Part shown: positions 2,328-38,152 of the stretch, piece by piece
Numbering within the stretch: the first letter of the stretch is position 1
Layout of the letters: each line of letters opens with the position of its first letter
Assembly: GCA_000091205.1 (NCBI GenBank)
Contig: AP006491.2
Strand: one strand, 5' to 3'
DNA: 64,000 bases
Source of the DNA: Cyanidioschyzon merolae
Lineage: Eukaryota
The notes under the pieces: model-generated
The model's input: only the letters and a program-made list of their open reading frames with translations
Database searches by the model: none
Told to the model about the DNA's origin: nothing
Position numbers and translations under genes: made by a program

Positions 2328-3770
2328 TCGGATAGGAACTCGCTTTGGGTTACCTCGCGCTGCGCCTTTGCAAATTTTCGGGCTAATGATCGATAAAAAC
2401 ACTAAGCAAGGCTGTCGGCAGCAGACCCTTCTCGGAGCAAGCCTCGGGTCCTCGTGCTCTAGCGGGAGTTCGTACAGACCTCCTCGGTCACAAGAGCTCG
2501 CGTGATTGAACGAAAATCTGAGGCGCATGAGACGTTCAAACAGTAGCTTATTCGTCACCGTCTTCGCCGATAGATAGGTGACCCTGAAAAACGAACAGCG
2601 GCAACGTGGCCTCGCCTCGGAGAGAAGTGCGCTGCACAGAATACTTTGCACGCTCGCTTCGAAAAACTGTCGTTCCAGCTGCTCTTGTTTGAGGTTGCTT
2701 TCGGAACCCCACTTTATTGCAAGTTCAGTACCTTCCAAAACGTTCCGCTCTCTGGGTCTGTGGAAAGCACCAGCGTGCAGGTGACCGTGCTCCAGTGATC
2801 AGACGCCACTGGGGATCAAAATGTTTCACCAGTCATGAACCAAGTTGGCGCATGCGACTTTCTCAGATGACAGAACGTTTAGATTGACCATAGCTCCCAG
2901 AATTCGGAATGGATAATAGCTTTCGGGAGAGGGTCCATGATGAAGCGCCTATCTTAGAGTTCCATTACCCATACTTGCTCTCGGATATACTGGTCGTTTC
3001 GTATGCTCGATCGTGCGACAAGTGCCTGCCGTGAACACCCGCCGTGGCGCTTATACCACTGAAGCAGATGCTGCACGGAGACAGAACGGCTTTGCCATAC
3101 CACTGAGGGCGCCCGCTCGAAGAATGATTCATTCAACATAGGGTCGGAATACATAATAATAATCCTGGGAGCCTGTAAGCTGCGCAGACAGATGCGCTGC
3201 CTGCGACAGCGCGAAGCGATACACTAAGAGTCCACTGCGACCAGGGTGACGCCCAGACGCAGCATCCTGCTCCTAGTCCCAAAGTGAATTCCGTTGCGGA
3301 CGAGCTGCGCAGGTCTCGCCACAGCACCTGCCACTGGTGGAAGCGTGAAGCACTAGGCCTGCAGACTCGTCCGGCTCGCGGGACCTTCTGCCTAGAGGGT
3401 AAACTTTCGAAGATACTGAAACTTTTCCCCATTTCGACGCTTATTATCAATGTCGAAAGAAACTGTTATCGAGTTGCTAGTCAGTGGTTAGTTTCTGTTA
3501 TTTCTTCCCTAGGAGAGTACTTGCTGCTCACGGGACGGGCACAACTGGAGGGCCCACCAGTCCGAGGACTGGCCTTTGCTGCCGCTATCTCTATTCAAAG
3601 CCCTGCCGAGTGCTCTCTCATTTTCTCTCTCTACAACCTCCTGTCCGCGCCCTTGGCCAAACCTGTGAAAAGATATCGCTCGCGTCACTCGTGTTCATAT
3701 GTAGGGTACATTGGCGCATGCGATACCCAATGAAATCGGCGTCGTCATCTAACGGATTGGTTGCTAGACT

Positions 3771-6322: not shown

Positions 6323-7235
6323 TTTTTCCATGGCTCTGTATTATCTGGAGTCGGGCGTGATGGACGCCAGGCGGCATGCCAGCGGGTGGAATAGCGGCGT
6401 CAGACCCGATGATAGCGCTCTGAGCACCTGAACGAGTTGAGCGGGATGCGTTGTGCGCGCCACTCACAGAGCGTACAAGAGCGTGTATCTGGCTCACGTG
6501 GGCTATCCCTGGCAGGTTTCCATGAGACCGCATTGAGATCGCCAACCAGCTCGGTGCGATGAAACCACGAGCGCGCACCAGCTCACTTCTTCAATGGAGA
6601 GCAGAGGGAGATGATCGACAATTCGCGTCGTTTGGCGGTAGCCTGTGGCGCTCGACGCGCAGTGCTGCGCACAGGCTGTACTCCCGTGCCTTCGACGGCG
6701 GCGTGCAACGAGTGCACGAGTCGATTCTGCACTATTGCTGTCAATGCGAACAGGGCGATGGACGCGCATCACAGGCAGGGGTGCACGCTGGAGCTGGTAG
6801 AGAGGAACAGCGTAGAAGCGTGTCGGATGCACGGGCTGGTCAACGGCAAACTGACCGGGCGTCAGTTGACGAGGCCATCGAAGATAGGAGACTTGCTATG
6901 CCGCGGCTCGATCCGCAACAAGTGCACATGCACTTGCTGCACCCAGACCTGAGCGCCTCGATCAACTTACGGAAATGCCGGGAGCGTTCGGAGCGTCCCG
7001 CGGCATTGTGTCGAGCGAACTCTTGAGGGAATCCTTTAGTGCTCAGTGGAGGTATTGTGCTGGGAAGCTGATGCGTTGCGATGAATACGAATCGGTGGTC
7101 AGGTGGGCGGACATTGGATATCCGCCCTGGGCGAGTCGCTGGTGTAGCACGGGTCAGCGAACCGGAAAGGCTGGAGCATTACACAGATGTATATAATGGG
7201 AACCTTTTCTCCTGGGTGATTGGTGGACCACAATG
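6323..7235 (+). repeat. R1 repeat: third, partial copy of the outer ~0.9 kb of the 32-40 kb inverted-repeat arms
   Basis: ORFs 6503..6832(-), 6559..7026(+), 6611..6952(+) and 6975..7196(+) translate almost identically to 39816..40145, 39872..40339, 39924..40265 and 40288..40509. Near-identity stops at ~6323. A diverged continuation is visible upstream: acatagaaaacgcaagtctcag at ~5845 versus acacagaaaacgcaagtctcag at ~39219. Confidence 0.85.
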
Positions 7236-7528
7236 AAGCTGGATAATCCCATATTACCGCGTATCCGTATTCCGACGCTCCCATGACTTTACGTGCATCG
7301 CATATGAACTCTACAGCCACGTCGCGCTGCACTGTCGCAGGGCCTGGGCCCGTACGCGTTCCGCCATCCCAGCTATGATCGCATAACCGATGCGGGCCGC
7401 TCATCGTTTCGCGTTCTGGGCACGCGGTCACCGCGATTCGCGGTAACATTACAGACCAGCTTTTTAACATTTTTTGTCTCGGTGACTTCGCGAACGGTGC
7501 TCACGACGCGAGTTACTTTACATAGGAC

Positions 7529-7795
7529 ATGAGTAGCGCGGATACACCCGAGAGGGTGCAAGCGTTCAAAGCTTACCTCGAAGAACAGGGCGTGAACGCT
7601 TTTCTGGTCGAGGCGATCAGCGATCTGTACGCTTCGCAACCACGACCGACGAACGCGCTGCAGTTTCTCGAGCAACGATTGAGTGAAACGCTTAAAAAGC
7701 GGAAAGATCCTTCGAAAGTCGCAGCTCCAGAAGCAAGCAAGACGGACGAAGGGATAGGTCCCGAAACTACAGGGAAGGAGACGGAAAATTATTAG
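7529..7795 (+). CDS. MYCBP: c-Myc-binding protein (MYCBP/AMY-1, FAP174-like) homologue
   Basis: This is an 88-aa ORF. ERVQAFKAYLEEQGVNAFLVEAISDLYASQPRPTNALQFLEQRL is collinear with the MYCBP core (F-R-x-YLE-x-x-GV...L...LYE.P.KP.NAL.FL...L) as I recall it. Confidence 0.7.
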   Translation: MSSADTPERVQAFKAYLEEQGVNAFLVEAISDLYASQPRPTNALQFLEQRLSETLKKRKDPSKVAAPEASKTDEGIGPETTGKETENY

Positions 7796-8201
7796 CGGAA
7801 GGAACAAGAGTGCTGGGGACAACGCCGAGAACTGCGCACGTTGAGTTCTCAAAGAACTCCACTGGTTGATAGCGCCTTCCTTGCAGAACGCTTCTACCGG
7901 CTGGCAGTTCCCAAGCTTGCTGTACGACGTCAGACGAGATGCGCAAGTGACTAGTATCCATGCGGATAACTTGGACAATGTAAACGACGTCTCGCAGCGC
8001 CGCGCCAATGGCTGGCGCCTTTCCAAGAATGCAGCTGTTCAGGAAAGTCTTTACTCCTCGGAAAACGCTCAGATTTGGGATACTAGAATCTCTGCTTCCT
8101 GCAAGAGGGTGTATGTTGGAATCGTCTCAATTTGCCTCGAGTTCTAGTCCAGGCTCAAGGTGATCGTGCCCCTTTTAAATATGGTGGGAATTCTACAGAT
8201 T

Positions 8202-9479
8202 TCAGTTATATACCATGTAGCGCCCTGTCGCGCTGAACTTGGCGTAACCGCGGATGACCTTATTGATCGCATCCAGAAAGTCCTGCTCACAGACAGTCTT
8301 CCTCCGAGCTCGAATGGCGAACATTCCCGCCTCGGTGCAGACACTGCGAAGATCCGCGCCGGTCGTGTTTGGGCACAGACGCGCCAAAAGTTCAAACCGG
8401 ATGCCTCGTTCACAATTCATGCTGCGTGAGTGAATGCGTAGTATCGAGGTTCTGCCTTCTAGGTCGGGCAAACTGAACTCAATCTTTCGATCGAGCCGTC
8501 CAGGACGTAAAAGTGCTGGGTCCAGCGTGTCGGGTCGGTTTGTAGCCATAAGAACCTTGATATTTCCCCGTGCATCGAATCCATCGAGCTGGTTAACAAT
8601 CTCAAGCATTGTTCTTTGTACTTCGTTATCACCTCCTTGCCCATCATCGTATCGCGCTCCACCAATCGCGTCCACTTCGTCAAAGAATACAATTGCAGCC
8701 CTTTTTGAGCGCGCCAACTGAAACAATTCACGCACCATGCGGGCGCCTTCTCCGACATACTTTTGCACAAGTTCAGATCCTATCACTCGAATGAACGTCG
8801 CATCGGTCCTGTTCGCAACTGCACGAGCAAGGAGAGTTTTTCCAGTACCAGGAGGGCCGTACAACAAGACTCCTTTCGGCGGATCGATGCCAAGTTCAAT
8901 GAACCTTTCCGGATGCAGAAGAGGTAATTCGACAACTTCCCGAATCCGTTCAATCTGCTCTTTGACACCGCCAATATCTGCATAAGTCACGTCAGGTTTC
9001 TCTTCCACGGTCATCATTGTAACGCTGGGATCAATACGTGGCGGCAGAGGAAGCTGGATTTGGAACTTGTTACGGTCGACGCCAACACGCATTCCCTCCT
9101 CAATGTCCGTGGGCGCAACGCGCTCCCCGAGACCCACAACGTACTTTGCAATCTGGCGGATGTTAATGACGTACTTTGCTCGCTCAGCTCCTTCATCGAT
9201 GATTTTGGTGCAACGCGCCACTTGTAGGGGCTGCTCTTCTTGCATAGCCTGTTTATCGGCAACGAGATCCCACGAACTCGGGGCTGCTAGACCCGTGTCA
9301 AGCTCGCGAACGCCCACAAGCTCGTCAATATTTTTCGTACACTCCTCTATCTCTTTCTCCAACTGCTTGATTCTGTTGCTGTAAGGGCCGAGACCGTAAG
9401 ACCGGAGCAGTTGTATATCTCCAGCATCAAGAGGTTTCGTGCTCTTACTTCCAGTACCCGTCTCAGAGTCCCCTGCCAT
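8202..9479 (-). CDS. RPT1: 26S proteasome regulatory subunit 7 (Rpt1/PSMC2), AAA ATPase
   Basis: The ORF carries Walker A GPPGTGKT and Walker B IVFFDEVD. It is collinear with PSMC2 throughout ([53 protein letters not shown]-terminal [13 protein letters not shown]). The likely start is the Met at 9479 (MAGDSETG...); the ORF-track Met is at 9551. Confidence 0.95.
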
Positions 9480-9780
9480 GATTAAGAAAGGTTGCCGCTG
9501 CAGGGCGTTCAACTCGCTAACAAATTGAGAGAAGACAATATTGTACGCCACGGGAATACAAAGAGAAGTGCGCCAGTGTCCGCCCTAAACTAATAGCGCC
9601 TCAGCGGTACTTCCCCGTGCTGAAAAGAACTCAAAGAATTCAACAGTCGGACCTATAGCTAAGATTCAGCGGCGCGCACACGCCATCAGAGCCACCGTAC
9701 GCCGCGTGCACCCATGTTGCCATAACACGGGCTATGTTCCCGAACTCACGACTATACTCGAAAGTTCGTGCCACTCACCG

Positions 9781-10640
9781 TTACCGCAAACGACGGCCTT
9801 GGCGGGCTTTTACCGCTATCGCTTCCATTTCCCCTCTCGCCTCTGGCTTTGAATACGCCGGTTGCTCATGTCTCTCCAGCCCCATGGTCACCAGCCGAAG
9901 GATACTGATCGTAGCGTTGAAGTCTCTGTTTCGCGGCTTCTCGCTGTTGTAGACCCGTTTTATGCACTGGCGCGAGTCACGATCTGAGCTTCGTTTACCA
10001 TTTGCATCCTCTTTCTGCACGGCCTCGGGGTGCACTCCCCAGCCGTTACACTTGGACCTGGTCAGGTGTTCCCATGTGCATCCACCAGTCCTCCACCGCC
10101 TCTGAGCGCCACTGTGTGGCGCGTAAACGCTTGACCCATCCCTCGGTACATGCGCTTTACCGTTCCGGAAGGCTCCGCCCGATGCCGTCCTCCGTTTCCG
10201 CGCGCTGCGCCATGCCCAATGATCACAGGCCTCTCCCGGGTGATTTCCTCAGCGAGTACTCTGTTCGCTGCACATTTGTGTGCGCGCTGTCGGATTCGAG
10301 TACTCGGACCCCGCCTCCTTGCCCGCTCTTCGTTTTTCTGCCAATTCTTCGCACAAAAAGTGCCGATGAGCTTGACGCGAATCGAGACACCTTGCCAACT
10401 CGTGGGTGTCGAGCCCGCATGTACTGTTTATTAGCGACGATGCGGCCAAGACGTCTGAGACTCACGCCGGGCTCGCTCGCAGGCGGCAGGCCTATCTTCG
10501 CCTCGGCGCCCTCGTATTTGAGGAATATTCGACCAAGGTTTAGAAACTGGCTGCTGATACCGGTTGCTCCCAGAAGCAGCGTCCGGGGTCGTCGTCGACG
10601 TCTCGCTGACCGTGATGTCCACGACATTCAGCACCAAAGA
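9781..10640 (-). pseudogene. Y-family TnpB/Fanzor-like RuvC nuclease relic (arm A copy)
   Basis: The minus-strand translation, spread across frames, reads VVDITVSET, then LGRIVANKQYMRARHPRVGKVSRF, then PVIIGHGAARGNGG, then EHLTRSKCNGWG (10036-10071), then RQCIKRVYNSEKPRNRDFNATISILRL (motif at 9892-9933). This follows the TnpB order: RuvC-I, helical RxxNxRxDxxHK, RuvC-II region, TSKxCxxCG, CxxC and DRDxNAAxNI. Frameshifts are present and Zn-ribbon cysteines are lost. Confidence 0.55.
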
Positions 10641-11139
10641 GTCGAAGGAGTGCTCAGAAACGAGGACCCGGAATCTCCAACATACCTATGAGTTCGTAGA
10701 ACATTACTGATGCGCTTCGAATGCCGAAGCTGTACGTCTGAACAAAAGTTCAGAAGCAAATCGAACGACGGCCACAGAGAAAGCAGTTTAGTGTTCTCTT
10801 TATAAATCTGACATGGACTAATGGTCTATAAACTCAACTGTATTCCTGCCGCACTGTGTATGATCGAATGCTGTTTGCGGTCTAGGGCGGGGGCCAGAAA
10901 TCACGATGCCATGTACCCGATAGATCGTAGGCGAATCGCCTGTGCGATACATATTCTTTCCTGAACAGTGCATGGAGGACTGCGTTCCTCCTCCAGGTCG
11001 GTCGTACAACAGTACTCAGATGGTTGACGAACACTGACCGAAAGAAGTAGATGCACTCTGCGTCAAACATCGATATTCTCAGAGAATGCGCGCGATCAAC
11101 GGTAGAAAACGGCCCGCTGACCACCTTTTACGAAAGACA

Positions 11140-11780
11140 AATGCGAAAATAGTAGTCGCTACGCGCGTCCCTGTTCCTTAAAAGCGTGTTCGAGTGGTCC
11201 TGAATACACGGGGTACAGTCGCAAAAAGAAAGTCTCAGTTCGTGCACGGCCATTTCCCACCGAGGTCACAGCTACTTCAGCGTTCGTGGAACGCCACTAT
11301 CCGTATGGAGCACAGGGACCGGGACACGGACGTCGGTTTGCTTGTTCAGTCGATGAAACTTGCTTCGGACGAGGCGGCCGGAGCGTAAATGGGTATTCGC
11401 GGACAGTGCACCCGCTGGATGTACGATCGAGCTCGAAGAGAGCGAGGATGTCATCATCTGCTCCAGACGGAGTGGACTTTATTTGCGGCCTCAGATTCAC
11501 TAGTGGAGAAGGCTCATCGACCAACACCAGCCACTTGATCGAATCATGGAAGATTTCGCCCCGACGTCGGGCGACGTCCTTCTGCTGGACACCGTGGCAT
11601 TTCACCATCCCCCTTGCGTTCGGGCTTTTGCCGATCCTGTCGAGGTATAGTGCTGCTTTTCATTCCTCTGTGCTCTACTTGATTCAACCTCATCAAAAGA
11701 ATGTTTTCCATTGTGAAACGTATGATGTCGCTCCAGTGGGGTCATCGCTGAAGCTTCCGGCACACGTTGACACACGGGCG
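11140..11780 (-). pseudogene. X1-family TnpB/Fanzor-like relic (arm A copy), 5'-truncated
   Basis: The minus-strand pieces run in TnpB order: SSRAQRNEKQHYTSTGSAKARTQ (11617-11676), VARRRGEIFHDSIKWLVLVDEPSPLVNL (11492-11569), SGADDDILALFELDRTSSGCTVRE, VSSTEQ...CPGPC, and FCDCTPCIQDHSNTLLRNRDARSDYYFRI (11140-11226). There are at least three frameshifts or stops. A ~310-bp non-coding tail runs to 10831. Confidence 0.5.
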
Positions 11781-11839
11781 CATGGTGTCTTACTTTCGCG
11801 AGTCCTAGCTTTTGCGGGAAGGTCCTCACCTAAACGAAT

Positions 11840-12363
11840 GAACAATCGCTATGATTTTGAAGAAACAGAGAATCCAAGGGAATGGTATGGATGTGGAAGT
11901 CGGGGATCCTGAGTTCCGTCATTGCTGGATTCGACGCAGCCAGAACGAAAAATGCCTCTTCTCGCCGACCATCGAGCGAAGAAGAGCAAGTGGCGAAGAA
12001 GGAGAAGAACGGAGATAGGCGAGGGACGGTGTTTGTCGAGTGGAACGATGACGAGACTGTAGCGGAACAGAGGGCACGAGTACTAAGAACCGTCGGTGTG
12101 ATGAGATCAGGGATCGGCAGTAAACGCATGGAGCTCGTAAGCCGAGACTTGAACGCTGCTACCAATATCAGACGATGCGTTGTGCTGGAGACGAGACCCG
12201 AGCAGCTGACACGATCCAACGCTATGCGGCAACTGCTGAGGCTCGAAGTGTACGTGAATCAACTGGAACCGATTGCAGGCGGCGGGTCAAAAAAGGCTGG
12301 GAGGCGTCCGCATGTGGGTATATATTTACCCTCAATGGCCGGGAAGCATGTCTCGTTTTACTG
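11840..12363 (+). pseudogene. X2-family TnpB/Fanzor-like relic (arm A copy), C-terminal half plus 3' tail
   Basis: The plus-strand translation reads PKRMNNRYDFEE, then (from copies B and C) GMDVEVGDPEF, then PTIERRRASGEEG, then GTVFVEWNDDETV, then ELVSRDLNAATNIRRC (12140-12178). Spacing matches RuvC-II through the LxYKA helix to RuvC-III. All four Zn-ribbon cysteines are missing, and there is a frameshift near 11890. Confidence 0.6.
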
Positions 12364-12709
12364 AATATAGTGTTGGACCGCAGGCCATACTATTACCCTC
12401 TGTGAAGACGAACATCCCACTTCTGGGTTTCACTCGAGCGGAGCGAATGCTTCCCGCTCGGGGCATGCATCGGCACGTACTCCATGCAGCGCGTTGCGCA
12501 GCCGTCGTAGCACTGGCGCGCAGCTCGTTGGATTGTGAACTGGACATCGGGGCGCTGCGCGCTGCGCGCCAGTGTCCAATCTCCGGTAGCATGATGATCG
12601 CTGGATGCGTCCAGGCCAGGCGAGCGTGCTCATCTCCGTACGTGCGCAGGCGTGTGTGTCTGGATGTGCGTACATACTTTTTGCTGGAACGCCGGTTATT
12701 AAAGGCCGC

Positions 12710-15016
12710 ATGTCTGCTGCAGGTTTCCCTAGAGTTTCGACGGCACTTTCCGCCGCGCTGAGGTCTAGGGGAGCACAACGCTGTGGAAGAGTATGGTGGG
12801 CGAGGGCGCCATCGCAGAGCTTGCGGGTTCTGCTTCGGAACTACACACCAAGTCTGGGTTCTTTCGGGCTACGGCGGCAGCTTTATCGTCTGGAGCGAGA
12901 AGCAGACTTGTACCCTGAAGATTGGAGAAAGCAGATGATACTCTTAGAACAGCTAAACCGAGAAGGATCTGTTCAAAGTGCCGAGAAAGTTATTCAACGC
13001 ATCGAATCCGGGAGGTATGCTCTCGGAGAAGAGGCAAAGTACGAGTACATCAAAGCCCTTGTACGAGTTGGAAAACTGGAGGAGCGGTCGAAAACTGGCG
13101 GTGGCCTCGAGTCCGTGTTGCGAAATATTCCAGGCTCTGGAAGTGTCCTTTCTCGAACTGGGAATAGTTCGGAAAGTGGTCGCCTTCCCAGAGGCGCTGC
13201 CGAGCCTCCGACTGCCGCGCGCTACACAGACAACTTTAACAGTCCTCTCCAAATGTATGCCGGTGAAGGCACGCACCCAACGAGCGCCGGTGCGACAGCT
13301 CCCTCCTCAGCGCGAGCGTTGATGGGAGGTGCCTCCGGCGGAGCGTCCGGCAGCACCGAGGAACCGCTTGTCGTCACCCTTGCTGAGCCTACCTTCAGGA
13401 CGCAACTGTGGAAAACGATCCGCACGCTTGGCACTGTATTTCTGCTAATGTCAGGAGTTGGTGCAGTTATGGAGGAGCGGGGCCTATCCCGAGGAATCAG
13501 TATGCAGCAAGAGGTGCTACCCGAAGAAGGCAACAAAAATCTGCGACGGTTCTCTGATGTGAAAGGCTGTGACGAGGCGAAGGATGAACTCATAGAGATA
13601 GTCGAGTATTTGAAGGCGCCACAGAAGTTTACGCGCCTCGGCGGAAAACTCCCCAAGGGCGTGCTTCTAGTCGGGCCACCTGGAACAGGCAAGACACTGT
13701 TGGCGAGAGCGATTGCGGGCGAGGCTGGCGTTCCGTTTTTCTACGCATCCGGCTCTGAATTTGAAGAAATGTTCGTAGGCGTCGGCGCTCGCCGCGTGCG
13801 GGAACTCTTTAACGCAGCTAAGAAGCGGGCTCCCTGTATCGTGTTCATTGACGAAATAGACGCAATAGGCGGCAAGCGGAACCCCAAAGATCAAATGTAT
13901 ATGAAAATGACCCTGAATCAGCTGCTTGTTGAGCTCGACGGATTTTCGTCCTCTGAGGGTATTATCGTGATCGGAGCTACGAACTTCCCGGAATCGCTCG
14001 ACAAGGCGTTGATTCGTCCGGGCAGATTCGATCGCCATGTTATCGTTCCGAACCCTGACGTTCGTGGACGAGAAGAGATCCTCACCCTTCACACCGAGAA
14101 GATTCCGCTTGCGGACGATGTGAATCTCGAAATACTTGCTCGGAGCACGCCTGGATTTTCTGGCGCAGATCTAGCGAATCTGGTGAACATGGCAGCTTTG
14201 AAGGCGGCCCGTGAAGGCGCTTCCCTCGTTACTATGGAGAACTTTGAGTTCGCCAAAGACAAGATAATCATGGGTGCCGAGAGACGCAGCGCAGTTATAT
14301 CAGAGGAAAACCGTCGTTTAACTGCTTACCACGAAAGCGGGCACGCGCTAGTCGCGCTCTTCACGGATGGCGCGCTGCCGGTGCATAAGGCAACCATTGT
14401 GCCGCGTGGCGTCGCTCTCGGCATGGTCGCGCAGCTCCCGGAAAAGGATATGACGTCTATGTCACGCAAACAGATGCTTGCTAAACTCGACGTGTGCATG
14501 GGCGGCAGAGCTGCTGAGGAACTGATTTTCGGACCTGAAAATGTCACGAATGGGGCGGAGTCTGATATAGAGCAGGCAACAGAGCTGGCAGAGGCAATGG
14601 TGACCCGCTTTGGTATGAGTCCCAAGCTGGGTAACATGGCTTACGACATTCAGAGGGAGGTATGTGGGGAGCTTCTGCACGTGGTGGAGAAGGAGGTCAA
14701 ACGATTTTTGGACGAAAGCTACCAGCGGGCAAAGCAAGTGCTGCTGACTCATGAAAAGGAACTCCATCGAGTGGCAGCGGCCCTACTGGAGAAAGAAACC
14801 TTGGGCCGGGAGGAGATCATTCGTATCGTGAGGGGCGATCCTCTCCGCGAGCAGTTGTCGGAGGAAACGACCGTGAAATCCGAAGAGGAGGCCGCCGACA
14901 CTGGCAGCCTGGCTGAAAACGTTGCAGCAAGAGCACGAGGCGCTGTCGCCGCAGCAGCGGCAAAAGCTGGCGTGCCTCGGCCTGGAAAAGTCCCGGCAAC
15001 AGCGAAAACGGCCTGA
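12710..15016 (+). CDS. YME1: ATP-dependent zinc metalloprotease YME1-like (mitochondrial i-AAA FtsH family)
   Basis: The ORF has one TM ([15 protein letters not shown]), Walker A GPPGTGKT, Walker [10 protein letters not shown], and the HEXXH site [10 protein letters not shown]. It is collinear with yeast Yme1 as recalled ([56 protein letters not shown]). The likely start is 12710 ([21 protein letters not shown], presequence-like); the ORF-track Met is at 12605. Confidence 0.93.
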
Positions 15017-15927
15017 GCATAGAGCTGAAGGTGCAAATGCGATTGCTTTGCACCTCATCAGCTGAGCAGAAGAGCAACCTGGATTCTGCGTCCGGCTTCG
15101 GTTTGTTTCCGGGAACCGTGTCCTGTACAGGTATGACGATGCTCAAAGGTACATGAACCCGAATCGCTATTTCGAATGTGTGCAAATGCAAGTCTCCTCT
15201 GGAAAATTTCGTTCTGGATATCTCAACAGGTCGCAATGACCGTTGATTCGACGTACACCTGTACGCCCAGAAGACAGGATGAAAAGGAATGGATCTAGAT
15301 CTATCCGGGTCCGAACTAAATGCACATAAAATCAAAAATCCCACGATGCTAGGTGCTGCATGTTTCAGCGCTGACGCATTCTCTCTATAGGTGATGATGC
15401 TCTTCGCGTCGGCGGGATTTGGTAAGCTTCTTAAGAGAGGTACGAGGCACCCAGTCACCACCAAAACCATACATGCGTCATCATTTTTGACGGAAAGTAG
15501 GAATTCGCTCCTCATCGGACACTACAAACGGGTTTTGAGTCGCCACCCGAGCAGTTCGTTCCACGCATGCAGTTCGCTTGCGGCATTTTGAGGTTGAAGC
15601 ACTCTTGGTCCAAGAAAAAGCGTTTCGATATCCTGTTCGCGGCTGAGGGACTTTACATTGTTACTGGAACGAATATGTCGGTTCACAAACCTGGATATAT
15701 TGTCGAAACACTTCAGTATAAACAATCCTCAGAAACGAGAAATTTCAGACGTCGTAGTGCAACGTTTTTACTGGCACTCGAGCATCGTCACAGAGCTTTT
15801 TTATTGCCTGCTTCGAGACCGGCCTTAGAGCCAATTTTGAAGTTTGCGGCATATACATATGTTAAGCAGAAAAAAAGATTCGCAATTGTGTGCGGTAAAA
15901 GAATATCCACTCGCAGAAGCTTATTAT

Positions 15928-18489
15928 CCTTTTTTGACCCGCCGCCTGCAATCGGTTCCAGTTGATTCACGCACACTTCGAGCCTCAGCAGTTGCCACAT
16001 AGCGTTGGATCGTGTCAGCTGCTCGGGTCTCGTCTTCAGCACAACGCATCGTCTGATATTGGTAGCAGCGTTCAAGTCTCGGCTTACGAGCTCCATGCGT
16101 TTACTGCCGATCCCTGATCTCATCACACCGAGGGTTCTTAGTACTCGTGCCCTCTGTTCCGCTACAGTCTCGTCATCGTTCCACTCGACAAACACCGTCC
16201 CTCGCCTATCTCCTTCTTCTCCTTCTTCGCCACTTGCTCTTCTTCGCTCGATGGTCGGCGAGAGGAGGCATTTCTCGTTCTGGCTGCGTCGAATCCAGCA
16301 ATGACGGAACTCAGGATCCCCGACTTCCACATCCATACCATTCCCTTGGATTCTCTGTTTCTTCAAAATCATAGCGATTGTTCATTCGTTTAGGTGAGGA
16401 CCTTCCCGCAAAAGCTAGGACTCGCGAAAGTAAGACACCATGCGCCCGTGTGTCAACGTGTGCCGGAAGCTTCAGCGATGACCCCACTGGAGCGACATCA
16501 TACGTTTCACAATGGAAAACATTCTTTTGATGAGGTTGAATCAAGTAGAGCACAGAGGAATGAAAAGCAGCACTATACCTCGACAGGATCGGCAAAAGCC
16601 CGAACGCAAGGGGAATGGTGAAATGCCACGGTGTCCAGCAGAAGGACGTCGCCCGACGTCGGGGCGAAATCTTCCATGATTCGATCAAGTGGCTGCTGTT
16701 GGTCGATGAGCCTTCTCCACTAGTGAATCTGAGGCCGCAAATAAAGTCCACTCCGTCTGGAGCAGATGATGACATCCTCGCTCTCTTCGAGCTCGATCGT
16801 ACATCCAGCGGGTGCACTGTCCGCGAATACCCATTTACGCTCCGGCCGCCTCGTCCGAAGCAAGTTTCATCGACTGAACAAGCAAACCGACGTCCGTGTC
16901 CCGGTCCCTGTGCTCCATACGGATAGTGGCGTTCCACGAACGCTGAAGTAGCTGTGACCTCGGTGGGAAATGGCCGTGCACGAACTGAGACTTTCTTTTT
17001 GCGACTGTACCCCGTGTATTCAGGACCACTCGAACACGCTTTTAAGGAACAGGGACGCGCGTAGCGACTACTATTTTCGCATTTGTCTTTCGTAAAAGGT
17101 GTCAACGGGCCGTTTTCTACCGTTGATCGCGCGCATTCTCTGAGAATATCGATGTTTGACGCAGAGTGCATCTACTTCTTTCGGCCAGTGTTCGTCAACC
17201 ATCTGAGTACTGTTGTACGACCGACCTGGAGGAGGAACGCAGTCCTCCATGCACTGTTCAGGAAAGAATATGTATCGCACAGGCGATTCGCCTACGATCT
17301 ATCGGGTACATGGCATCGTGATTTCTGGCCCCCGCCCTAGACCGCAAACAGCATTCGATCATACACAGTGCGGCAGGAATACAGTTGAGTTTATAGACCA
17401 TTAGTCCATGTCAGATTTATAAAGAGAACACTAAACTGCTTTCTCTGTGGCCGTCGTTCGATTTGCTTCTGAACTTTTGTTCAGACGTACAGCTTCGGCA
17501 TTCGAAGCGCATCAGTAATGTTCTACGAACTCATAGGTATGTTGGAGATTCCGGGTCCTCGTTTCTGAGCACTCCTTCGACTCTTTGGTGCTGAATGTCG
17601 TGGACATCACGGTCAGCGAGACGTCGACGACGACCCCGGACGCTGCTTCTGGGAGCAACCGGTATCAGCAGCCAGTTTCTAAACCTTGGTCGAATATTCC
17701 TCAAATACGAGGGCGCCGAGGCGAAGATAGGCCTGCCGCCTGCGAGCGAGCCCGGCGTGAGTCTCAGACGTCTTGGCCGCATCGTCGCTAATAAACAGTA
17801 CATGCGGGCTCGACACCCACGAGTTGGCAAGGTGTCTCGATTCGCGTCAAGCTCATCGGCACTTTTTGTGCGAAGAATTGGCAGAAAAACGAAGAGCGGG
17901 CAAGGAGGCGGGGTCCGAGTACTCGAATCCGACAGCGCGCACACAAATGTGCAGCGAACAGAGTACTCGCTGAGGAAATCACCCGGGAGAGGCCTGTGAT
18001 CATTGGGCATGGCGCAGCGCGCGGAAACGGAGGACGGCATCGGGCGGAGCCTTCCGGAACGGTAAAGCGCATGTACCGAGGGATGGGTCAAGCGTTTACG
18101 CGCCACACAGTGGCGCTCAGAGGCGGTGGAGGACTGGTGGATGCACATGGGAACACCTGACCAGGTCCAAGTGTAACGGCTGGGGAGTGCACCCCGAGGC
18201 CGTGCAGAAAGAGGATGCAAATGGTAAACGAAGCTCAGATCGTGACTCGCGCCAGTGCATAAAACGGGTCTACAACAGCGAGAAGCCGCGAAACAGAGAC
18301 TTCAACGCTACGATCAGTATCCTTCGGCTGGTGACCATGGGGCTGGAGAGACATGAGCAACCGGCGTATTCAAAGCCAGAGGCGAGAGGGGAAATGGAAG
18401 CGATAGCGGTAAAAGCCCGCCAAGGCCGTCGTTTGCGGTAACGGTGAGTGGCACGAACTTTCGAGTATAGTCGTGAGTTCGGGAACATA
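15928..18489. mobile_element. Composite repeat, arm B (inverted copy of arm A): X2 (15928-~16380, minus), X1 (~16440-17390, plus), Y (17391-18489, plus)
   Basis: ORF-track translations are identical to arm A for the 229-, 134-, 94-, 84- and 72-aa ORFs of the Y part. The X part differs at a few residues. The X2 motif lies at ~16046-16084(-) and the Y motif RNRDFNATISILRL at 18289-18330(+). The X2 3' terminus is replaced: similarity to copies A and C ends at 15928, so about 70 bp of tail is missing. Confidence 0.9.
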
Positions 18490-19816
18490 ATCCTTTTTGT
18501 AGTTACCTGGGTCTAAAATCGAAGGCTTGAACGAGATGCCCTATGGATGCGCGGTAGCTGCTATCATCTTTGGAGGAGACGGCTTCCCTTTTCTAATCAT
18601 CACGACGTTACACAAGCTTGGGCCCATTTCTTTCGTCGAAAATGGGGCCTGGATCGTTCCAGCGATGGATCCGCGCAACGCGAAGGCACCAAAGACAGAA
18701 ATTAATGGTAAACTGCGAACGGGTATACTGGATTAATCTGCTGCCCGGGGGGTTCCGTGTAAATTACATAGCACGTACGCGTGGTGGGCCTCATGCTCAG
18801 TAACTTTCGCGAAACTTCTCTCGGGCGCGATGCGGTTTCCAATCAATACCCTCGAATCAGTATTGTTTCGAGTCGTGACGGATTGAAGCATCCCCTGCGC
18901 TTTTCCCCCGAGCGATCGCAAGCAATGATTCACGGAATTCCCTGGCAAGAGCTCCACGAGATGCTTTTTTGCTCTAGGAGCACATGGTGCCGGATTGAAT
19001 TACCTGAGACTTATCTTGGCATGGTAGCCCTACCCTCCAAGGTAGCTACTGTCAGCCAACTCAGATACTAAAAAGCGAGGCATCTCGTTCAGATATCTGC
19101 TCACGCGCGTCGAACCGGACTGTGGGGATTTCGTGAGCTTTCCTGGCGCGTTTACCTCAGCCATAGGCATTTGCTGTAGTCACTGGAACCGAGGGCACAC
19201 TCGAGGTCTCATGCAGAATATCGCTTGGCGCTGGTATATTACCAAATCATATGCAGAGAATTAATGATTTGAGCGTATTGCACAAAACCGCTGTTCAACG
19301 AAAGAGAGGAGATTCATTTCGTGTAAAGCGGGCGAACGGAGACTCTTAAAGCCGGAACGGGATCGACGACATCAGATTTGCACGCGCGCTTCGGGTCCGA
19401 AGCTGAACGTGCGCGACTCCCGACAAGAGGCCCCGTCCATTTTTTTACCTCTGGAAGATTTACACTGACTATGGATCTCCCGTGGCGCGATTTGTGTTTG
19501 CATCCGGAAAAACGATCATTTTTCCACACTATATCATCACGTCCTGTCGCCCGCCACCCACATTTTCCAGACAGAGACACCGTTCATATTGCTTCCTCAG
19601 TAGAGCACCAAACTGTTGTGAGTACCGAAATTAGCGCCTAAAATGCCAGGGTAGACGCCCCAACGAGACGGAACGGCTTTGCCTTACCCTCATGGGCATC
19701 GGCCTCAGAGGCCACGTCCATGAGCGGTCGCAATCGCCACTTATGTGGAGCGTAGCGCACGCTTGCTGCACGAATCCCGGACTTCTTACAAGTGTGGCGC
19801 ATGGAAAAGTTGGCAG

Positions 19817-20509
19817 TCACATTACTATCGCCCGTGAACTCCAAAATTCAACGGCTTGAAGGTACAACTGCCTGTCGAAAGGCACACTGCTACCACCTTC
19901 CGTCAGGATTGCGTTTCGCATAATAGTTATTGGTTGCATGGGAGTCTCATACGGTTCATCCTGCGCTTTAATGCTCACAACGCGCCACGGGGCAGGGTCC
20001 TCCGGTGGCTTTTCAGCCATCGCTAGCGCCTCTTTGATGCACTGCTCTCGGGAATACAGAATAATGTCAAGATAGCGAGCAACGGGCAAACTTTCGTAAC
20101 CACCGATTTTTTCAAGTGGAAAATATCGAATTAGTACCGGAACCTCTTTCTCTGTGCGGGCATCATATTTCGTCCTCAAAAGAATTTCGTTCTCGGGTGT
20201 TATCTTCCAAACTGAAACGCGTGCGTTTGTAAAGTTTGGGATGAACAAATGCTTACAGAAATCAGCGTACCCTTGTACGAGAGCAGGTTTGTCTCTGAAC
20301 TCTAGCTCTAGAGCGAGTCGTTCCCTGTAATACTCGTTCAGCTTATCCTCGAACAGCTGAGGTTCAAAGAATATTCTCGTCCCACTGTGAGCAGGGTTAT
20401 TAAACTGACGCAGAACGAAGCGATCGAGCTTAAGGAAACTAGAAGTTGCCATAGAAGCGTCAACGACGATCGGAAATGTGGCGTCCAGATGGCTCTGATT
20501 TACGGCCAT
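19817..20509 (-). CDS. Conserved protein of unknown function (DUF3228-like)
   Basis: This is a clean 230-aa ORF with globular composition. Family recognition is from memory only. Its start codon lies 35 bp from the divergent P5C reductase start. Confidence 0.7.
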   Translation of the reverse strand: MAVNQSHLDATFPIVVDASMATSSFLKLDRFVLRQFNNPAHSGTRIFFEPQLFEDKLNEYYRERLALELEFRDKPALVQGYADFCKHLFIPNFTNARVSVWKITPENEILLRTKYDARTEKEVPVLIRYFPLEKIGGYESLPVARYLDIILYSREQCIKEALAMAEKPPEDPAPWRVVSIKAQDEPYETPMQPITIMRNAILTEGGSSVPFDRQLYLQAVEFWSSRAIVM

Positions 20510-20544
20510 GGAAGATTGGAGTTCTCATTAGCCCGAAAGTCAAA
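20510..20544. promoter_or_regulatory. 35-bp head-to-head intergenic spacer (putative bidirectional promoter/5' UTRs)
   Basis: It lies between the ATG of the DUF3228-like gene (20509, minus) and the best-supported ATG of P5C reductase (20545, plus). Confidence 0.4.
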
Positions 20545-21372
20545 ATGGAGCCCCTAAGAATAGGTTTTCTTGGCGGAGGTGCCATGTGTGAAGCCATACT
20601 CCGTGGGCTGTTGGACAAAAAGGTTGTGCAGAGCTCCGATGTATGGGTAAGCGACGTCGCTGAGTCTCGTCTGGAAGTAATGCGAGGTCTCGGCGTCAAC
20701 GCCACTGCAAACGGTCGAAAGGTAGTTGAAAAAGCCTCTGTGATTTTGCTTGCCGTCAAACCGGACACGGTACCTGAGGTACTACGCGATGTTCACGACC
20801 TGATCAAGCAGAGCCAACTCCTTGTGTCAATCTGCGCTGGAGTGCCTTTACAAGCTTTGGAGGACCTCGTGCCGGACGGTGTGGCGGTCGTCCGAGTCAT
20901 GCCCAACACCCCGTGCCTCGTCGGCGCCGCAGGCTCCGCCTATGCTCTCGGAAAGAACGCTTCACTCGCAAACCATGCGAATATCGTGGAGGCAATATTT
21001 GGAGCCGTTGGACTGACTGTCCGTGTTCCAGAGAAGCTGCTCGATGCAGTTACGGGAGTGAGTGGCTCCGGACCGGCATACGTTTTTATGTTCATGGAGG
21101 CGCTCGCTGACGGAGGCGTTTGTGCGGGGCTCCCACGTGACATTGCAAAGAAACTGGCTGTCCAAACAGTGTACGGATCAGCGAAGATGGCCATGGAAAA
21201 CGAAAACATGCATCTCGCAGAGCTCCGTAACCGCGTTGAATCACCGGGTGGAACAACAATAGCAGCGTCTCGCGCTCTAGAGGCAAACAGCTTCCGTGCA
21301 ACTGTCATCGGCGCGGTCATGGCCGCGGCCCAGAGAAGCGCTGAAATGCGAACAAAGCCGTCGCCGTTCTAG
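20545..21372 (+). CDS. P5CR: Pyrroline-5-carboxylate reductase
   Basis: The N-terminal Rossmann motif is RIGFLGGGAMCEAI. The ProC signature region is LRNRVESPGGTTIAASRALE. The start was chosen at MEPLRIGFLGGG; the ORF-track Met at 20476 would overlap the neighbouring gene. Confidence 0.9.
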   Translation: MEPLRIGFLGGGAMCEAILRGLLDKKVVQSSDVWVSDVAESRLEVMRGLGVNATANGRKVVEKASVILLAVKPDTVPEVLRDVHDLIKQSQLLVSICAGVPLQALEDLVPDGVAVVRVMPNTPCLVGAAGSAYALGKNASLANHANIVEAIFGAVGLTVRVPEKLLDAVTGVSGSGPAYVFMFMEALADGGVCAGLPRDIAKKLAVQTVYGSAKMAMENENMHLAELRNRVESPGGTTIAASRALEANSFRATVIGAVMAAAQRSAEMRTKPSPF

Positions 21373-21459
21373 AAAGGGGGCATGGCCTTCGTCAGACTGA
21401 ACCGTAACATAGTGGAACGAGAATTGTTTTAAGACCGCAAAACCAGAAAGTAATTTCTC

Positions 21460-22284
21460 TCATGAATCTATATCCTCAGCAGAGCCAAGTCTTTGGCCAG
21501 TACCCCAGTGATGCCCCCGTATTTGTGAAAGAATGGAAGCGCTGCGGGGCTGAGTTATTTCGTTTCTCTGATTGCGAGGTTGGTTGCGTGGACGTTCTCC
21601 AAACAGTCGGTACATCCAACTGGGCGTTTTGGTGATTCCCGCTCTTTGGTGTCCATGAAGCGATGGATATATCGCATCCAAGAAGTAGAAGAGGTGACCA
21701 CTGAGCACGCCAACGATGCCTGGGATATCGAGCCGTCCTGCGAGCAGCGTATTAATTGCCAAAAGCGCGAAAGAAAGGTACGCAGCGGGGACGGCAAAGA
21801 CAAAGACATGAACTCGTTCACGTGGAAACTTTCGCGACCATACATGCATTATGGCCATCATTAAACATCTGCCGAGAATCGGAAGTGGTACCAAGACCAT
21901 TGAGGCCAAACACAAGAAAAACTCGATTACTACCAACATCCAAGTGTACTCAGCGGAAGAGCCCATGAAGACTCCGGTTTCGAGGGATTTTGAGAAGCGA
22001 TAAAGAAACACTAGATCGAACAGGAAATTCAAGCCGAGCGGCCCCAGAAGAAATGACGCTGTCAACGGCCGCCAGATCTCGTACTTTCGAAGGACCCGAT
22101 CCCAGTCAAGAAGTACCGCCCCAAACGGAACGAAACCCAGACCACAGGCAAGGGTGAATAAAGTGGCAGCAGTCAGCCAAGTTCTTGTCACCCGGGGAAT
22201 AGAATAATAGAACGAGGTTAGAGACAGCTCGTCCCCTCTCCAGTCACGAACGTTTGCCATTGTGCAGCAAGCAGTACGAAACAA
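21460..22284 (-). CDS. DER1: Derlin (Der1-like ERAD membrane protein)
   Basis: YYSIPRVTRTWLTAATLFTL opens the Der1-like domain. The WR motif is KYEIWRPLTASFLLG. There are four hydrophobic helices, and GHLFYFL is present. An alternative start lies at 22260 (MANVRDW). Confidence 0.85.
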   Translation of the reverse strand: MFRTACCTMANVRDWRGDELSLTSFYYSIPRVTRTWLTAATLFTLACGLGFVPFGAVLLDWDRVLRKYEIWRPLTASFLLGPLGLNFLFDLVFLYRFSKSLETGVFMGSSAEYTWMLVVIEFFLCLASMVLVPLPILGRCLMMAIMHVWSRKFPRERVHVFVFAVPAAYLSFALLAINTLLAGRLDIPGIVGVLSGHLFYFLDAIYPSLHGHQRAGITKTPSWMYRLFGERPRNQPRNQRNEITQPRSASILSQIRGHHWGTGQRLGSAEDIDS

Positions 22285-22303
22285 TTAGATTTAGGTTTCG
22301 CTC

Positions 22304-23284
22304 ATGGAATCGTGGAGACGTTCTTGCAAGTCGTGGAGGGAGCGCTTTTCCGATGATCTGGTTTATGAAATAAATATTCATACCGACGAATACTTCGGAA
22401 AATTGAAAATTTTTCTCCAACAGGCACCGTCTGGGAGTTACGTCAAGAAAAAGTTTAGAAGCTGCGAAGCCTCTGGTGGAGCAACTGTAGTGAAAAACTT
22501 GAGCTGCGGAGCACCAGTAACGTCAGGAACTCTGGCGTCGCACGGTCCACATCCCAGCGATTTCCGAATCGTCGGTTATGCTCTTAACGAAAAGCGCCTG
22601 TGTCGAGATATTACACCTCCAGAAGAACCGAATCGTTTGTGCGACAGCGCTGCCACTGGCTGGACCGCCTGGGATGCTAGCCTAGTACTAGCGAAGTGGT
22701 TGGAAAGGCGGCCTTACCTCGTGTGTAACAAGTTATGTCTTGAGCTCGGAGCTGGTATCGGCTTAGTATCCTCAGTAGCCTACTGCCTCGGGGCAAAGCT
22801 AACTGTATCCACAGACCGGGACGATGTGATATTCCTCCTGAAAAGCAACTTAAACCGTACAGTGGAGGCCTACATAGCGTATAATAATCAACTTAGGGTG
22901 AAACGAGCAGTTGACTCGAAGCTCGCGGCAGAAGTACTTCACTGGGAATCGAAGGAACATTTGGAGCGTGTACTGGCCGTGTATGGCGCTCCTGAAGTCA
23001 TTTTATGTTCAGATCTGGTTTACGAAGAGTTAGCTTCCCGCGCGCTTGTGCACGTACTTGTCCGAATATCGCGAGCAAGCTTGCAAATGGGGAGAAAACC
23101 TTTGATCATAATGGCGCAGGACGAGCACGTCCCTGAAGTTCTCGAACAATTCTTGGCCGGCATAAGTGCGTTTTTCACTGTTGACCGTGTGCCATGCTTA
23201 GATTTTAATCCGAATTTTAGCAGTGAGTTGATTAGAGTTTACCTTTTCCGGCCAAAAGCTGAACACTTTTTATATAATCAGTAA
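22304..23284 (+). CDS. Protein-lysine N-methyltransferase-like (Methyltransf_16 / FAM86-METTL21 type)
   Basis: ATGWTAWDASLVLAKWL...LCLELGAGIGLVSSVAYCLGAKLTVSTD matches SAM motif I and post-I of family 16. The last codon and stop (CAG TAA, 23279-23284) lie inside the terminus of repeat copy C. Confidence 0.75.
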   Translation: MESWRRSCKSWRERFSDDLVYEINIHTDEYFGKLKIFLQQAPSGSYVKKKFRSCEASGGATVVKNLSCGAPVTSGTLASHGPHPSDFRIVGYALNEKRLCRDITPPEEPNRLCDSAATGWTAWDASLVLAKWLERRPYLVCNKLCLELGAGIGLVSSVAYCLGAKLTVSTDRDDVIFLLKSNLNRTVEAYIAYNNQLRVKRAVDSKLAAEVLHWESKEHLERVLAVYGAPEVILCSDLVYEELASRALVHVLVRISRASLQMGRKPLIIMAQDEHVPEVLEQFLAGISAFFTVDRVPCLDFNPNFSSELIRVYLFRPKAEHFLYNQ

Positions 23285-24811
23285 CACGAGACATGCTTCC
23301 CGGCCATTGAGGGTAAATATATACCCACATGCGGACGCCTCCCAGCCTTTTTTGACCCGCCGCCTGCAATCGGTTCCAGTTGATTCACGCACACTTCGAG
23401 CCTCAGCAGTTGCCACATAGCGTTGGATCGTGTCAGCTGCTCGGGTCTCGTCTTCAGCACAACGCATCGTCTGATATTGGTAGCAGCGTTCAAGTCTCGG
23501 CTTACGAGCTCCATGCGTTTACTGCCGATCCCTGATCTCATCACACCGAGGGTTCTTAGTACTCGTGCCCTCTGTTCCGCTACAGTCTCGTCATCGTTCC
23601 ACTCGACAAACACCGTCCCTCGCCTATCTCCTTCTTCTCCTTCTTCGCCACTTGCTCTTCTTCGCTCGATGGTCGGCGAGAGGAGGCATTTTTCGTTCTG
23701 GCTGCGTCGAATCCAGCAATGACGGAACTCAGGATCCCCGACTTCCACATCCATACCATTCCCTTGGATTCTCTGTTTCTTCAAAATCATAGCGATTGTT
23801 CATTCGTTTAGGTGAGGACCTTCCCGCAAAAGCTAGGACTCGCGAAAGTAAGACACCATGCGCCCGTGTGTCAACGTGTGCCGGAAGCTTCAGCGATGAC
23901 CCCACTGGAGCGACATCATACGTTTCACAATGGAAAACATTCTTTTGATGAGGTTGAATCAAGTAGAGCACAGAGGAATGAAAAGCAGCACTATACCTCG
24001 ACAGGATCGGCAAAAGCCCGAACGCAAGGGGAATGGTGAAATGCCACGGTGTCCAGCAGAAGGACGTCGCCCGACGTCGGGGCGAAATCTTCCATGATTC
24101 GATCAAGTGGCTGCTGTTGGTCGATGAGCCTTCTCCACTAGTGAATCTGAGGCCGCAAATAAAGTCCACTCCGTCTGGAGCAGATGATGACATCCTCGCT
24201 CTCTTCGAGCTCGATCGTACATCCAGCGGGTGCACTGTCCGCGAATACCCATTTACGCTCCGGCCGCCTCGTCCGAAGCAAGTTTCATCGACTGAACAAG
24301 CAAACCGACGTCCGTGTCCCGGTCCCTGTGCTCCATACGGATAGTGGCGTTCCACGAACGCTGAAGTAGCTGTGACCTCGGTGGGAAATGGCCGTGCACG
24401 AACTGAGACTTTCTTTTTGCGACTGTACCCCGTGTATTCAGGACCACTCGAACACGCTTTTAAGGAACAGGGACGCGCGTAGCGACTACTATTTTCGCAT
24501 TTGTCTTTCGTAAAAGGTGGTCAGCGGGCCGTTTTCTACCGTTGATCGCGCGCATTCTCTGAGAATATCGATGTTTGACGCAGAGTGCATCTACTTCTTT
24601 CGGTCAGTGTTCGTCAACCATCTGAGTACTGTTGTACGACCGACCTGGAGGAGGAACGCAGTCCTCCATGCACTGTTCAGGAAAGAATATGTATCGCACA
24701 GGCGATTCGCCTACGATCTATCGGGTACATGGCATCGTGATTTCTGGCCCCCGCCCTAGACCGCAAACAGCATTCGATCATACACAGTGCGGCAGGAATA
24801 CAGTTGAGTTG
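23279..24811. mobile_element. Solo X element (X2+X1 relic pair), copy C, same orientation as arm B
   Basis: It is 1.54 kb and nearly identical to 15928-17390. It also retains the ~70-bp X2 terminus seen in arm A. The X2 motif lies at 23464-23502(-) and the X1 RNRD region at ~24416-24502(+). The high-coordinate boundary is at 24811: acagttgagt, then unique sequence. Confidence 0.9.
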
Positions 24812-38150: not shown

Positions 38151-38152
38151 AA

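Follow-up and report, generated by a model that had tools for sequence, protein, structure and literature searches.

A Fanzor1-relic inverted repeat around YME1 in Cyanidioschyzon merolae and the reversed orientation of the gene relative to outgroup genomes

Inversions by nonallelic homologous recombination (NAHR) between inverted repeats are known from Ty- and insertion sequence (IS)-mediated rearrangements and from the human Xq28 region, where the FLNA–EMD segment lies between 11-kb inverted duplicates. Gene conversion from arm to arm is a feature of the palindromes of the human Y chromosome and of the large inverted repeat of plastids, the latter occurring as flip-flop isomers. We studied a related arrangement in a 64,000-nt stretch of nuclear DNA (hereafter the window; contig AP006491.2, assembly GCA_000091205.1) from an 810,151-bp chromosome of Cyanidioschyzon merolae 10D, a model organism prized for a genome that is minimal, fully sequenced, and supposedly stable. 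Here, the gene of a YME1-like i-AAA protease is bracketed by two inverted and almost identical copies of a repeat that we call X2, and it is oriented oppositely to its counterparts in three outgroup assemblies. The closest described relative of X2 is the Fanzor1 element CMe-1A, of which ∼150 decayed copies are present in the C. merolae genome (Bao & Jurka 2013, PMC3627910).

The inverted repeat and the gene within it

The inverted repeat at YME1 is confirmed. In a blastn alignment, arm A (9733–12296, + strand) matched arm B (18489–15928, − strand) at 99.53% identity over 2,564 columns, the 12 differences consisting of 10 mismatches and 2 one-base indels. An earlier note on this DNA, made from the sequence alone, had described the arms as near-identical reverse complements, and this description holds. 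The arm pair is not due to chance, because it extends over 2.5 kb at 99.5%, and a repeat finder run on the window returned it in three blocks (9710–12330 / 15894–18512). Once the tails of the elements are included, the limits of the arms and of the spacer are as follows:

9733–12369, + strand: arm A, full-length X2 of 2,637 nt; 12297–12369 is a tail of type a
15872–18489, − strand: arm B, full-length X2 in inverse orientation; 15872–15927 is a tail of type b
12370–15871: spacer of 3,502 nt, limited by the two element termini and inverted relative to the outgroups
12605–15016, + strand: open reading frame (ORF) of the YME1-like i-AAA protease, with Pfam domains PF00004 (AAA) and PF01434 (peptidase M41)

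The differences between the arms are distributed unevenly. The outer 1,304 nt contain none, and all 12 (at 11037, 11117, 11121, 11527, 11609, 11949, 11959, 12010, 12092, 12188, 12227, and 12252) fall in the inner 1,260 nt (P = 2e-4). This agrees with the earlier claim of an identical outer 1.1 kb and a few substitutions further in.

The annotated YME1 protein, BAM80037, has 768 amino acids (aa), starts at 12710, and matches the C. merolae 10D record exactly; its closest solved structure in a PDB search was that of yeast YME1 (6az0, E 2e-162). YME1 is the sole recognizable gene of the spacer, as had been proposed, but the spacer itself is shorter than the 3.63 kb first given, its true extent being the one listed above. 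That YME1 is essential, as the note also has it, is an assumption. The entire gene lies inside the spacer together with 235–340 nt of upstream sequence. Read from its first ATG, the ORF encodes 803 aa as compared with the annotated 768, and gene calls in environmental sequences give 693 or 796 aa; the homology with Cyanidiococcus begins at 12710. The PFK (BAM80043) and MutL (BAM80049) proteins encoded in the window are likewise exact matches to C. merolae 10D records.

Each of the four arm junctions is found in assemblies independent of the reference. The inner junctions of both arms are present in the JGI/ENA contigs L003–L009, L024, and L025, one of which (L003) spans 11960–16268 at 99.6%. 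The outer junction of arm A, on the Rpt1 side, was recovered in ENA and Logan contigs (L010–L016; L010 spans 6937–9893), and six Logan unitigs end at 9762, 30 nt inside the repeat, where a k = 31 graph would be expected to stop. The outer junction of arm B is found in JGI contigs L022 and L027, which span 18343–23514 and include the terminus of a third X2 copy. Within the environmental contigs, the spacer is 99.6–99.86% identical to that of 10D, corresponding to a divergence of 0.14–0.40%.

Fanzor1 remnants and the X2 family

One ORF of the arms, ending in “...VSRDLNAATNIRRC...”, hinted at the RuvC-III motif of TnpB and Fanzor nucleases. As queries we used the CMe-1A consensus (3169 bp) and the CMe-1 protein (734 aa) from the supplements of PMC3627910. 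These located one clear and one tentative remnant in each arm:

12053–12319, + strand: R1, C-terminal remnant of a Fanzor1 gene of CMe-1 type, from RuvC-III “SRDLNAATNIRRC” to “GRRPHV”
9781–10292, − strand: R2, tentative second Fanzor1 remnant, heavily decayed, “NRDFNATISILR ... EAIAVKARQGRRLR*”
∼17930–18441, + strand: mirror of R2 in arm B

With tblastn, the R1 segment of arm A matched CMe-1 aa 640–729 at 51% identity (E 6e-20), and residues 615–729 matched at 16300–15908 in arm B and at 23718–23323 in a further copy, C. The inner 270–400 nt of each arm thus correspond to the C-terminal 90–115 residues of CMe-1. A profile of six Fanzor1 proteins found R1 with an E value of 1.6e-14, and R1 contains the motif SRDLNAATNI; its residual ORF stops at 12364. 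On the DNA level, R1 aligned to the 3′ end of the CMe-1A consensus only (2882–3088, 72.7% over 209 nt), below the ∼80% identity of CMe-1A family copies, and the remnant represents a diverged sublineage. Only residues ∼615–729 of 734 are retained; the upstream frames are full of stop codons, and there is no intact nuclease ORF. Judged by these similarities, the arms are remnants of dead Fanzor1 genes, which bears out their earlier description as a nuclease relic. R1 lies at the inner end of each arm, so the nuclease 3′ ends point inward, again as described. A Pfam scan of 15 ORFs of the arms and spacer other than YME1 found no domain and neither a transposase nor a recombinase.

The outer part of each arm probably contains R2 on the opposite strand. 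Its translation reads “NRDFNATISILR...GRRLR*” with the stop codon at 9781–9783, placing the 3′ end ∼50 nt from the outer arm boundary. A tblastn search restricted to the arm gave an E value of 0.005, and hidden Markov model (HMM) matches were weak but collinear and consistently spaced (HMM positions 533–591 at 10292–10109, E 0.086; 658–672 at 9930–9885, E 2). The 2.2 kb of the arm outside R1 gave only these weak minus-strand matches when compared by tblastn, tblastx, and blastn with CMe-1, CMe-1A, and the separate repeat family X1 (below). If R2 is real, both ends of X2 would be 3′ termini of Fanzor elements.

Near full-length Fanzor1 ORFs of 698–752 aa were found in JGI metagenomes from Cyanidioschyzon-type environmental populations (P0158, P0197, and P0198). 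Of these, P0197 is an intact environmental relative of 702 aa, 42–43% identical to CMe-1. Its structure was predicted with a predicted local distance difference test (pLDDT) score of 64, and the seven best Foldseek matches in PDB were all Fanzor proteins (template modeling score 0.51–0.61), led by SpuFz (8gkh, E 5e-12) and followed by GtFz and PpFz; Cas12 proteins appeared only above E 0.1. The family related to X2 is thus predicted to have a Fanzor/TnpB-like fold. Searches of PDB by sequence, whether the query was an intact family member or a profile of five proteins, gave no match, and only the fold comparison succeeded. No conserved RNA structure was seen when six family 3′ ends were folded with RNAalifold, the covariation term being +2.56 (a penalty) with few compensatory pairs, and scans of the whole window for Rfam families (at the gathering threshold) and for tRNAs returned nothing.

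We found five copies of X2, A to E, all within ∼50 kb of one chromosome. The census was made by an exact scan of JGI metagenome contigs with one 24-mer from X2, and all 10 stretches found belong to these five contexts. Besides the two arms, the copies are:

23273–24810, − strand: copy C, 5′-truncated at the position matching 10831 of arm A, with a type-a tail
∼3.3–5.9 kb left of the window start: copy D, full-length
left of the window, by the Nse1 gene: copy E, 5′-truncated, sharing a 31.6-kb contig with D

Copy C, which is direct to B and inverted to A, is 99.35% identical to A and 99.73% identical to B (blastn). The copies have one of two tails. Type a is shared by A, C, and D in different flanks, with the terminus ...TTTTACTGAATATA (at 12369 in A), while B and E have the 56-nt variant b (15927–15872, terminus ...GCGAATCTTTTT at 15872). 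The two are identical at 21 of 34 positions in register (P 1.5e-4), and type b has GCTTCTGCGAGTGG in common with an older relic. The tail of arm B is identical to that of copy E in three metagenome contigs, and the earlier suggestion that arm B has lost its last ∼70 bp does not stand: The arm carries an alternative family tail. Taken together, these results mark X2 as a lineage-specific repeat of C. merolae, put together from decayed Fanzor1 remnants of CMe-1 type.

Orientation of YME1 and how it may have arisen

For comparison, we used 22-kb loci around YME1 from Cyanidiococcus yangmingshanensis (L028, GCA_026122185.1; YME1 79% identical), a second Cyanidiococcus-like environmental genome (L031, JGI), and a more distant cyanidiophyte (L029; YME1 69% identical). 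The gene order in all three is unk670(+), YME1(+), a small gene(−), Rpt1(+). In Cyanidiococcus, unk670 is followed by genes for PFK, AAA_18, and CTLH proteins, and on the far side of Rpt1 are unk183, unk347, and a DEAD2 helicase. Rpt1, unk183, unk347, unk670, PFK, AAA_18, and CTLH have kept their order and relative orientation in the window; among the genes mapped there, only YME1, the gene between arms A and B, is reversed. The genes anchoring the comparison on either side are:

8202–9551, − strand: Rpt1/PRS7-like 26S proteasome ATPase, left anchor (Pfam PF21236, PF00004)
25239–27296, − strand: unk670, right anchor, the immediate upstream neighbor of YME1 in all three outgroup loci

The Rpt1 protein is 94.6% identical to that of Cyanidiococcus and encoded on the collinear strand. 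The right anchor, unk670, was found by tblastn at 7236–9248 of the C. yangmingshanensis locus (56.5% identity) and at 7518–9527 of the most distant one (33%), and is also present in the third. No homology to X2 or Fanzor was detected in the outgroup YME1 loci. This agrees with the repeat expansion of C. merolae, in which repeats make up 12.7% of the genome as against 0.59% in Cyanidiococcus (PMC9812998). In Galdieria partita, synteny at the YME1 locus is absent and the comparison uninformative.

By parsimony, the orientation of YME1 in C. merolae is the derived state, and the opposite orientation in three outgroup assemblies points to an inversion of the interarm segment in the C. merolae lineage. 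The expectation, stated before, that arms this similar should flip the YME1 segment is thus borne out historically, and the proposed check against sister species found the arms absent and YME1 in the opposite orientation in these three assemblies. In the literature searched, we found no description of this microinversion; the inversions reported in PMC9812998 and PMC13353863 are of chromosome scale only. The locus combines repeats at the breakpoints with a reversed segment in collinear flanks, the pattern by which a repeat-mediated inversion would be recognized. The FKBP_C gene of Cyanidiococcus, at 14085–14966 in L028 and 11341–11784 in L031, has no detectable homolog in the window, and a 232-aa ORF at 14817–15515 (− strand), at the FKBP_C position (15017–15871), has no Pfam or outgroup match.

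The probable course of events, as we see it and with appreciable room for others, is homologous recombination between arms A and B followed by homogenization of the arms, as a passive by-product of the repeat expansion. X2 copies would first have come to occupy the intergenic regions on both sides of YME1, inverted relative to each other. Recombination between A and B would then have inverted the 3.5-kb YME1 segment of an ancestral Rpt1(−) YME1(−) unk670(−) arrangement, and later gene conversion from arm to arm, or further exchange, would have removed all differences from the outer 1.3 kb. Three observations support sequence exchange between the arms. The outer half has 0 differences when ∼12 are expected at the rate of the inner half. 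Beyond both edges of the 99.5% block, the in-register homology drops sharply to ∼61–62% for 23–34 nt (P ∼2–3e-4). Finally, the grouping of the copies by tail (a in A, C, and D; b in B and E) conflicts with the similarity of their bodies, B being closest to C. We infer that gene conversion has homogenized the arms and that the exchange took place between exactly A and B. Homologous recombination is highly efficient in the nuclear genome of C. merolae (PMC12770821).

Several observations weigh against this account. No available contig spans a whole arm with unique DNA on both sides, and the exchange and present-day flipping were not seen directly. The locus has also changed in other ways: C. merolae lacks the FKBP-type gene that separates YME1 from Rpt1 in the outgroups and has gained a block of four genes, and the orientation of YME1 may have been reached by another path, e.g., an A × C exchange with further events. 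The DEAD2 gene left of the window is inverted with no obvious inverted repeat at its flanks, and therefore not every inversion here needs X2 arms; conversely, the spacer of a second inverted-repeat pair (32029–34437 / 38146–40555) is not inverted relative to Cyanidiococcus. The divergence between the arms, 0.47%, is of the same order as that of the spacer between strains (0.14–0.40%), and recent duplication could explain much of the arm identity without gene conversion. The mosaic alleles seen in contigs L002 and L020 may be assembly chimeras, and the identification of R2 is based on weak matches only.

We also considered that the YME1 segment still isomerizes, with both orientations coexisting in cultures or in natural populations of this alga, which is haploid and recombination-proficient, and that X2 copies serve as portable sites of recombination by which gene blocks have been reshuffled time and again. 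We regard this as doubtful. If true, Fanzor-relic repeats would drive microrearrangement in a genome deemed exceptionally simple and stable. Two gene stretches, D...B and B...C, are bracketed by direct X2 repeats, a layout that would fit excision as a circle and reintegration at another X2 copy. The mosaics of L002 and L020 were not accepted as proving gene conversion or an inversion between E and A, since phasing by short-read assemblers fails at sites deeper than 0.5 kb in a 99% repeat. In contig L002 (JGI 3300050748, 6822 bp), the Nse1 flank of copy E is connected to YME1 by a 5′-truncated X2 with a type-a tail; this is the junction expected from E × A recombination, a large inversion, and may equally be a short-read chimera. 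A unique series of inversions and transpositions from the outgroup order to that of C. merolae is not derivable from the 22-kb outgroup loci.

An inversion that arose in one step together with the second arm, by a transposition-coupled event (intramolecular replicative or alternative transposition) or by replication-template switching, seems unlikely. Events of this sort invert the stretch from donor to target and leave inverted copies at both breakpoints. Such an event would place the arms exactly at the two breakpoints, where they are found; moreover, all five X2 copies sit at synteny breakpoints within ∼50 kb and have defined ends in common, and the near full-length Fanzor1 ORFs of natural populations (P0158, P0197, and P0198) make activity in trans conceivable. 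On the other hand, duplication of a single donor would give identical ends, and the tails of the two arms differ, A having type a and B, as E, type b. X2, a dead composite, lacks a transposase, Fanzor is a nuclease not known to transpose DNA, and inspection of the flanks revealed no target-site duplication in either the direct or the inversion-split configuration.

It is similarly improbable that the association is a coincidence. In that case, X2 copies would have entered the two intergenic regions independently, by insertion or duplication, and the orientation of YME1 would have changed through other rearrangements, such as an A × C exchange with further events or those behind the shift of the four-gene block and the loss of the FKBP gene. 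In favor of this, at least five to six breakpoints separate the region from its outgroup counterparts and, at ∼3.4 kb per gene, repeats in neighboring intergenic regions automatically bracket single genes. Copy A is also inverted relative to C, and exchange between these two, with the four-gene block between Rpt1 and YME1, would give the same orientation of YME1. These routes nevertheless need more events than a single A × B exchange, and the sole reversed gene between the anchors Rpt1 and unk670 is the one lying between the inverted arms.

Very little speaks for a composite transposon or mobile cassette, of which the arms would be the ends and which would carry YME1 around the genome. The geometry of inverted element copies flanking a gene, as in Tn10 and Tn5, fits this layout, to which the locus had been likened, but nothing else does: YME1 lies between the same neighbors as in the three outgroup assemblies, and so has not moved; it is a single copy, with one context in all assemblies searched; the arm ORFs contain neither a transposase nor any Pfam domain; and there is no duplication at 9733 / 18489. 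The other likeness proposed, to an invertible segment, fails if a programmed switch is meant, as there is no recombinase domain, the arms are 2.6 kb long, and the whole gene flips together with its upstream region, so that flipping would switch nothing. The X2 pair is best explained as a passive recombination substrate, neither a mobile cassette nor a regulatory switch.

That the reference contains a collapsed repeat or a false duplication, an assembly artefact for which nothing more than the general risk with 2.6-kb repeats can be said, is a negligible prospect and excluded, because independent JGI, ENA, and Logan assemblies of many samples reproduce four of four junctions and the arms are told apart by twelve differences and two distinct tails.

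Breakpoints nearby and comparison with known systems

Every X2 copy sits at a synteny breakpoint. The gene block gained between the direct repeats B and C is:

19820–23284: DUF3228, P5CR, DER1, and Methyltransf_16 genes, between B and C (18490–23272)

These genes are absent from the outgroup YME1 neighborhoods, and no database record matched the P5CR protein in an exact look-up. A related cyanidiophyte (L030) has DUF3228-P5CR-DER1-MT16 next to an Oxidored-like gene and unk230; the latter two flank copy D in C. merolae, where the block follows copy B (contigs L018 and L019). Compared with L030, an ancestral adjacency is thus split by ∼25 kb lying between the direct repeats D and B. At copy E, ILVD is joined to the Nse1 block.

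The DEAD2-type helicase gene lies ∼0.9–3.2 kb left of the window start (L018 2080–4317) and has the opposite orientation in both outgroups. The Fanzor relics on its two sides, copy D and one of 72% at L018 1100–1577, stand in direct rather than inverted orientation. Fanzor relics are unusually frequent in the window, given that ∼150 copies have been published for 16.5 Mb. Its other repeats and relics, and one compositional feature, are:

32029–34437 / 38146–40555: inverted pair of repeat family X1, 98.9% identical over 2,410 nt, with a partial copy at 6323–7228; X1 holds a remnant of Fanzor1 aa 462–702, with the 3′ ends outward
34809–35420 and 35362–36846: AAA_18-like and CTLH/RING genes in the 3.7-kb X1 spacer, not inverted relative to Cyanidiococcus
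59642–61620, + strand: long multiframe Fanzor1 remnant covering aa ∼83–682 of the P0197-type subfamily, the most complete relic of the window
61020–61062 / 61078–61120: exact 43-nt direct repeat, 58 nt from start to start, inside the long relic
46624–47200, + strand: internally deleted CMe-1A-like relic, consensus 786–969 joined to 2809–3088
2866–3507, + strand: TE-N2_CMe-like copy, 83% identical to CMe-1A 2–640
54001–58000: local G+C peak of 63–67% compared with ∼53% elsewhere, covering overlapping long ORFs on both strands at 55.7–57.8 kb

The locus reveals no new mechanism, as repeat-mediated inversion and the Fanzor1 relics of C. merolae were already known; it matters mainly for the genome evolution of this species and for gene-targeting practice. 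It ties the lineage-specific repeat expansion (12.7% vs. 0.59%) to concrete rearrangements on the scale of genes, with at least four further breakpoints in ∼60 kb, each marked by an X2 copy, beside the single-gene inversion. Homologous recombination is the basis of gene targeting in C. merolae, and the 2.6-kb inverted repeat of 99.5% identity around YME1, together with the three further copies in its vicinity, can lead constructs, primers, and short-read assemblies astray.

Among described systems, CMe-1A (PMC3627910) resembles X2 in the RuvC-III region and tail, found in X2 at the inner end of the arms, and both are decayed; X2, too, is without terminal inverted repeats or a recognizable target duplication. 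Unlike CMe-1A, however, X2 keeps only the last 90–115 residues, at 72% DNA identity as compared with ∼80% for typical copies, and is a composite in which a second remnant probably lies in opposite orientation. The CMe-1A copies, ∼150 in number and ∼80% identical, are dispersed, whereas the five of X2 are ∼99% identical and lie in ∼50 kb.

In their architecture, Tn10 and Tn5 share with the locus a cargo gene flanked by inverted copies of an insertion element, but here there is no functional transposase, movement, or target duplication, and the cargo is in its ancestral place. The invertible segments of Hin/Gin, fim, and the FLP system of the yeast 2-micron plasmid are similarly bounded by inverted repeats; at YME1, in contrast, no recombinase is found, the arms are of kilobase size, and promoter and gene flip together, so that no expression switch is expected. 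Palindromes and the plastid repeat resemble the locus in that the arms are far more alike than their age suggests, with a sharp drop at the edges from 99.5% to ∼60% and an uneven spread of differences, but the YME1 arms are transposable element remnants with no genes, and the signs of conversion between them are indirect. The best match is to the inversions produced by NAHR, with which the locus shares high-identity inverted repeats at the breakpoints, an intact reversed gene, and flanks collinear with relatives; it differs from them in that the historical outcome alone is seen, and that the locus also lost a gene and gained a block.

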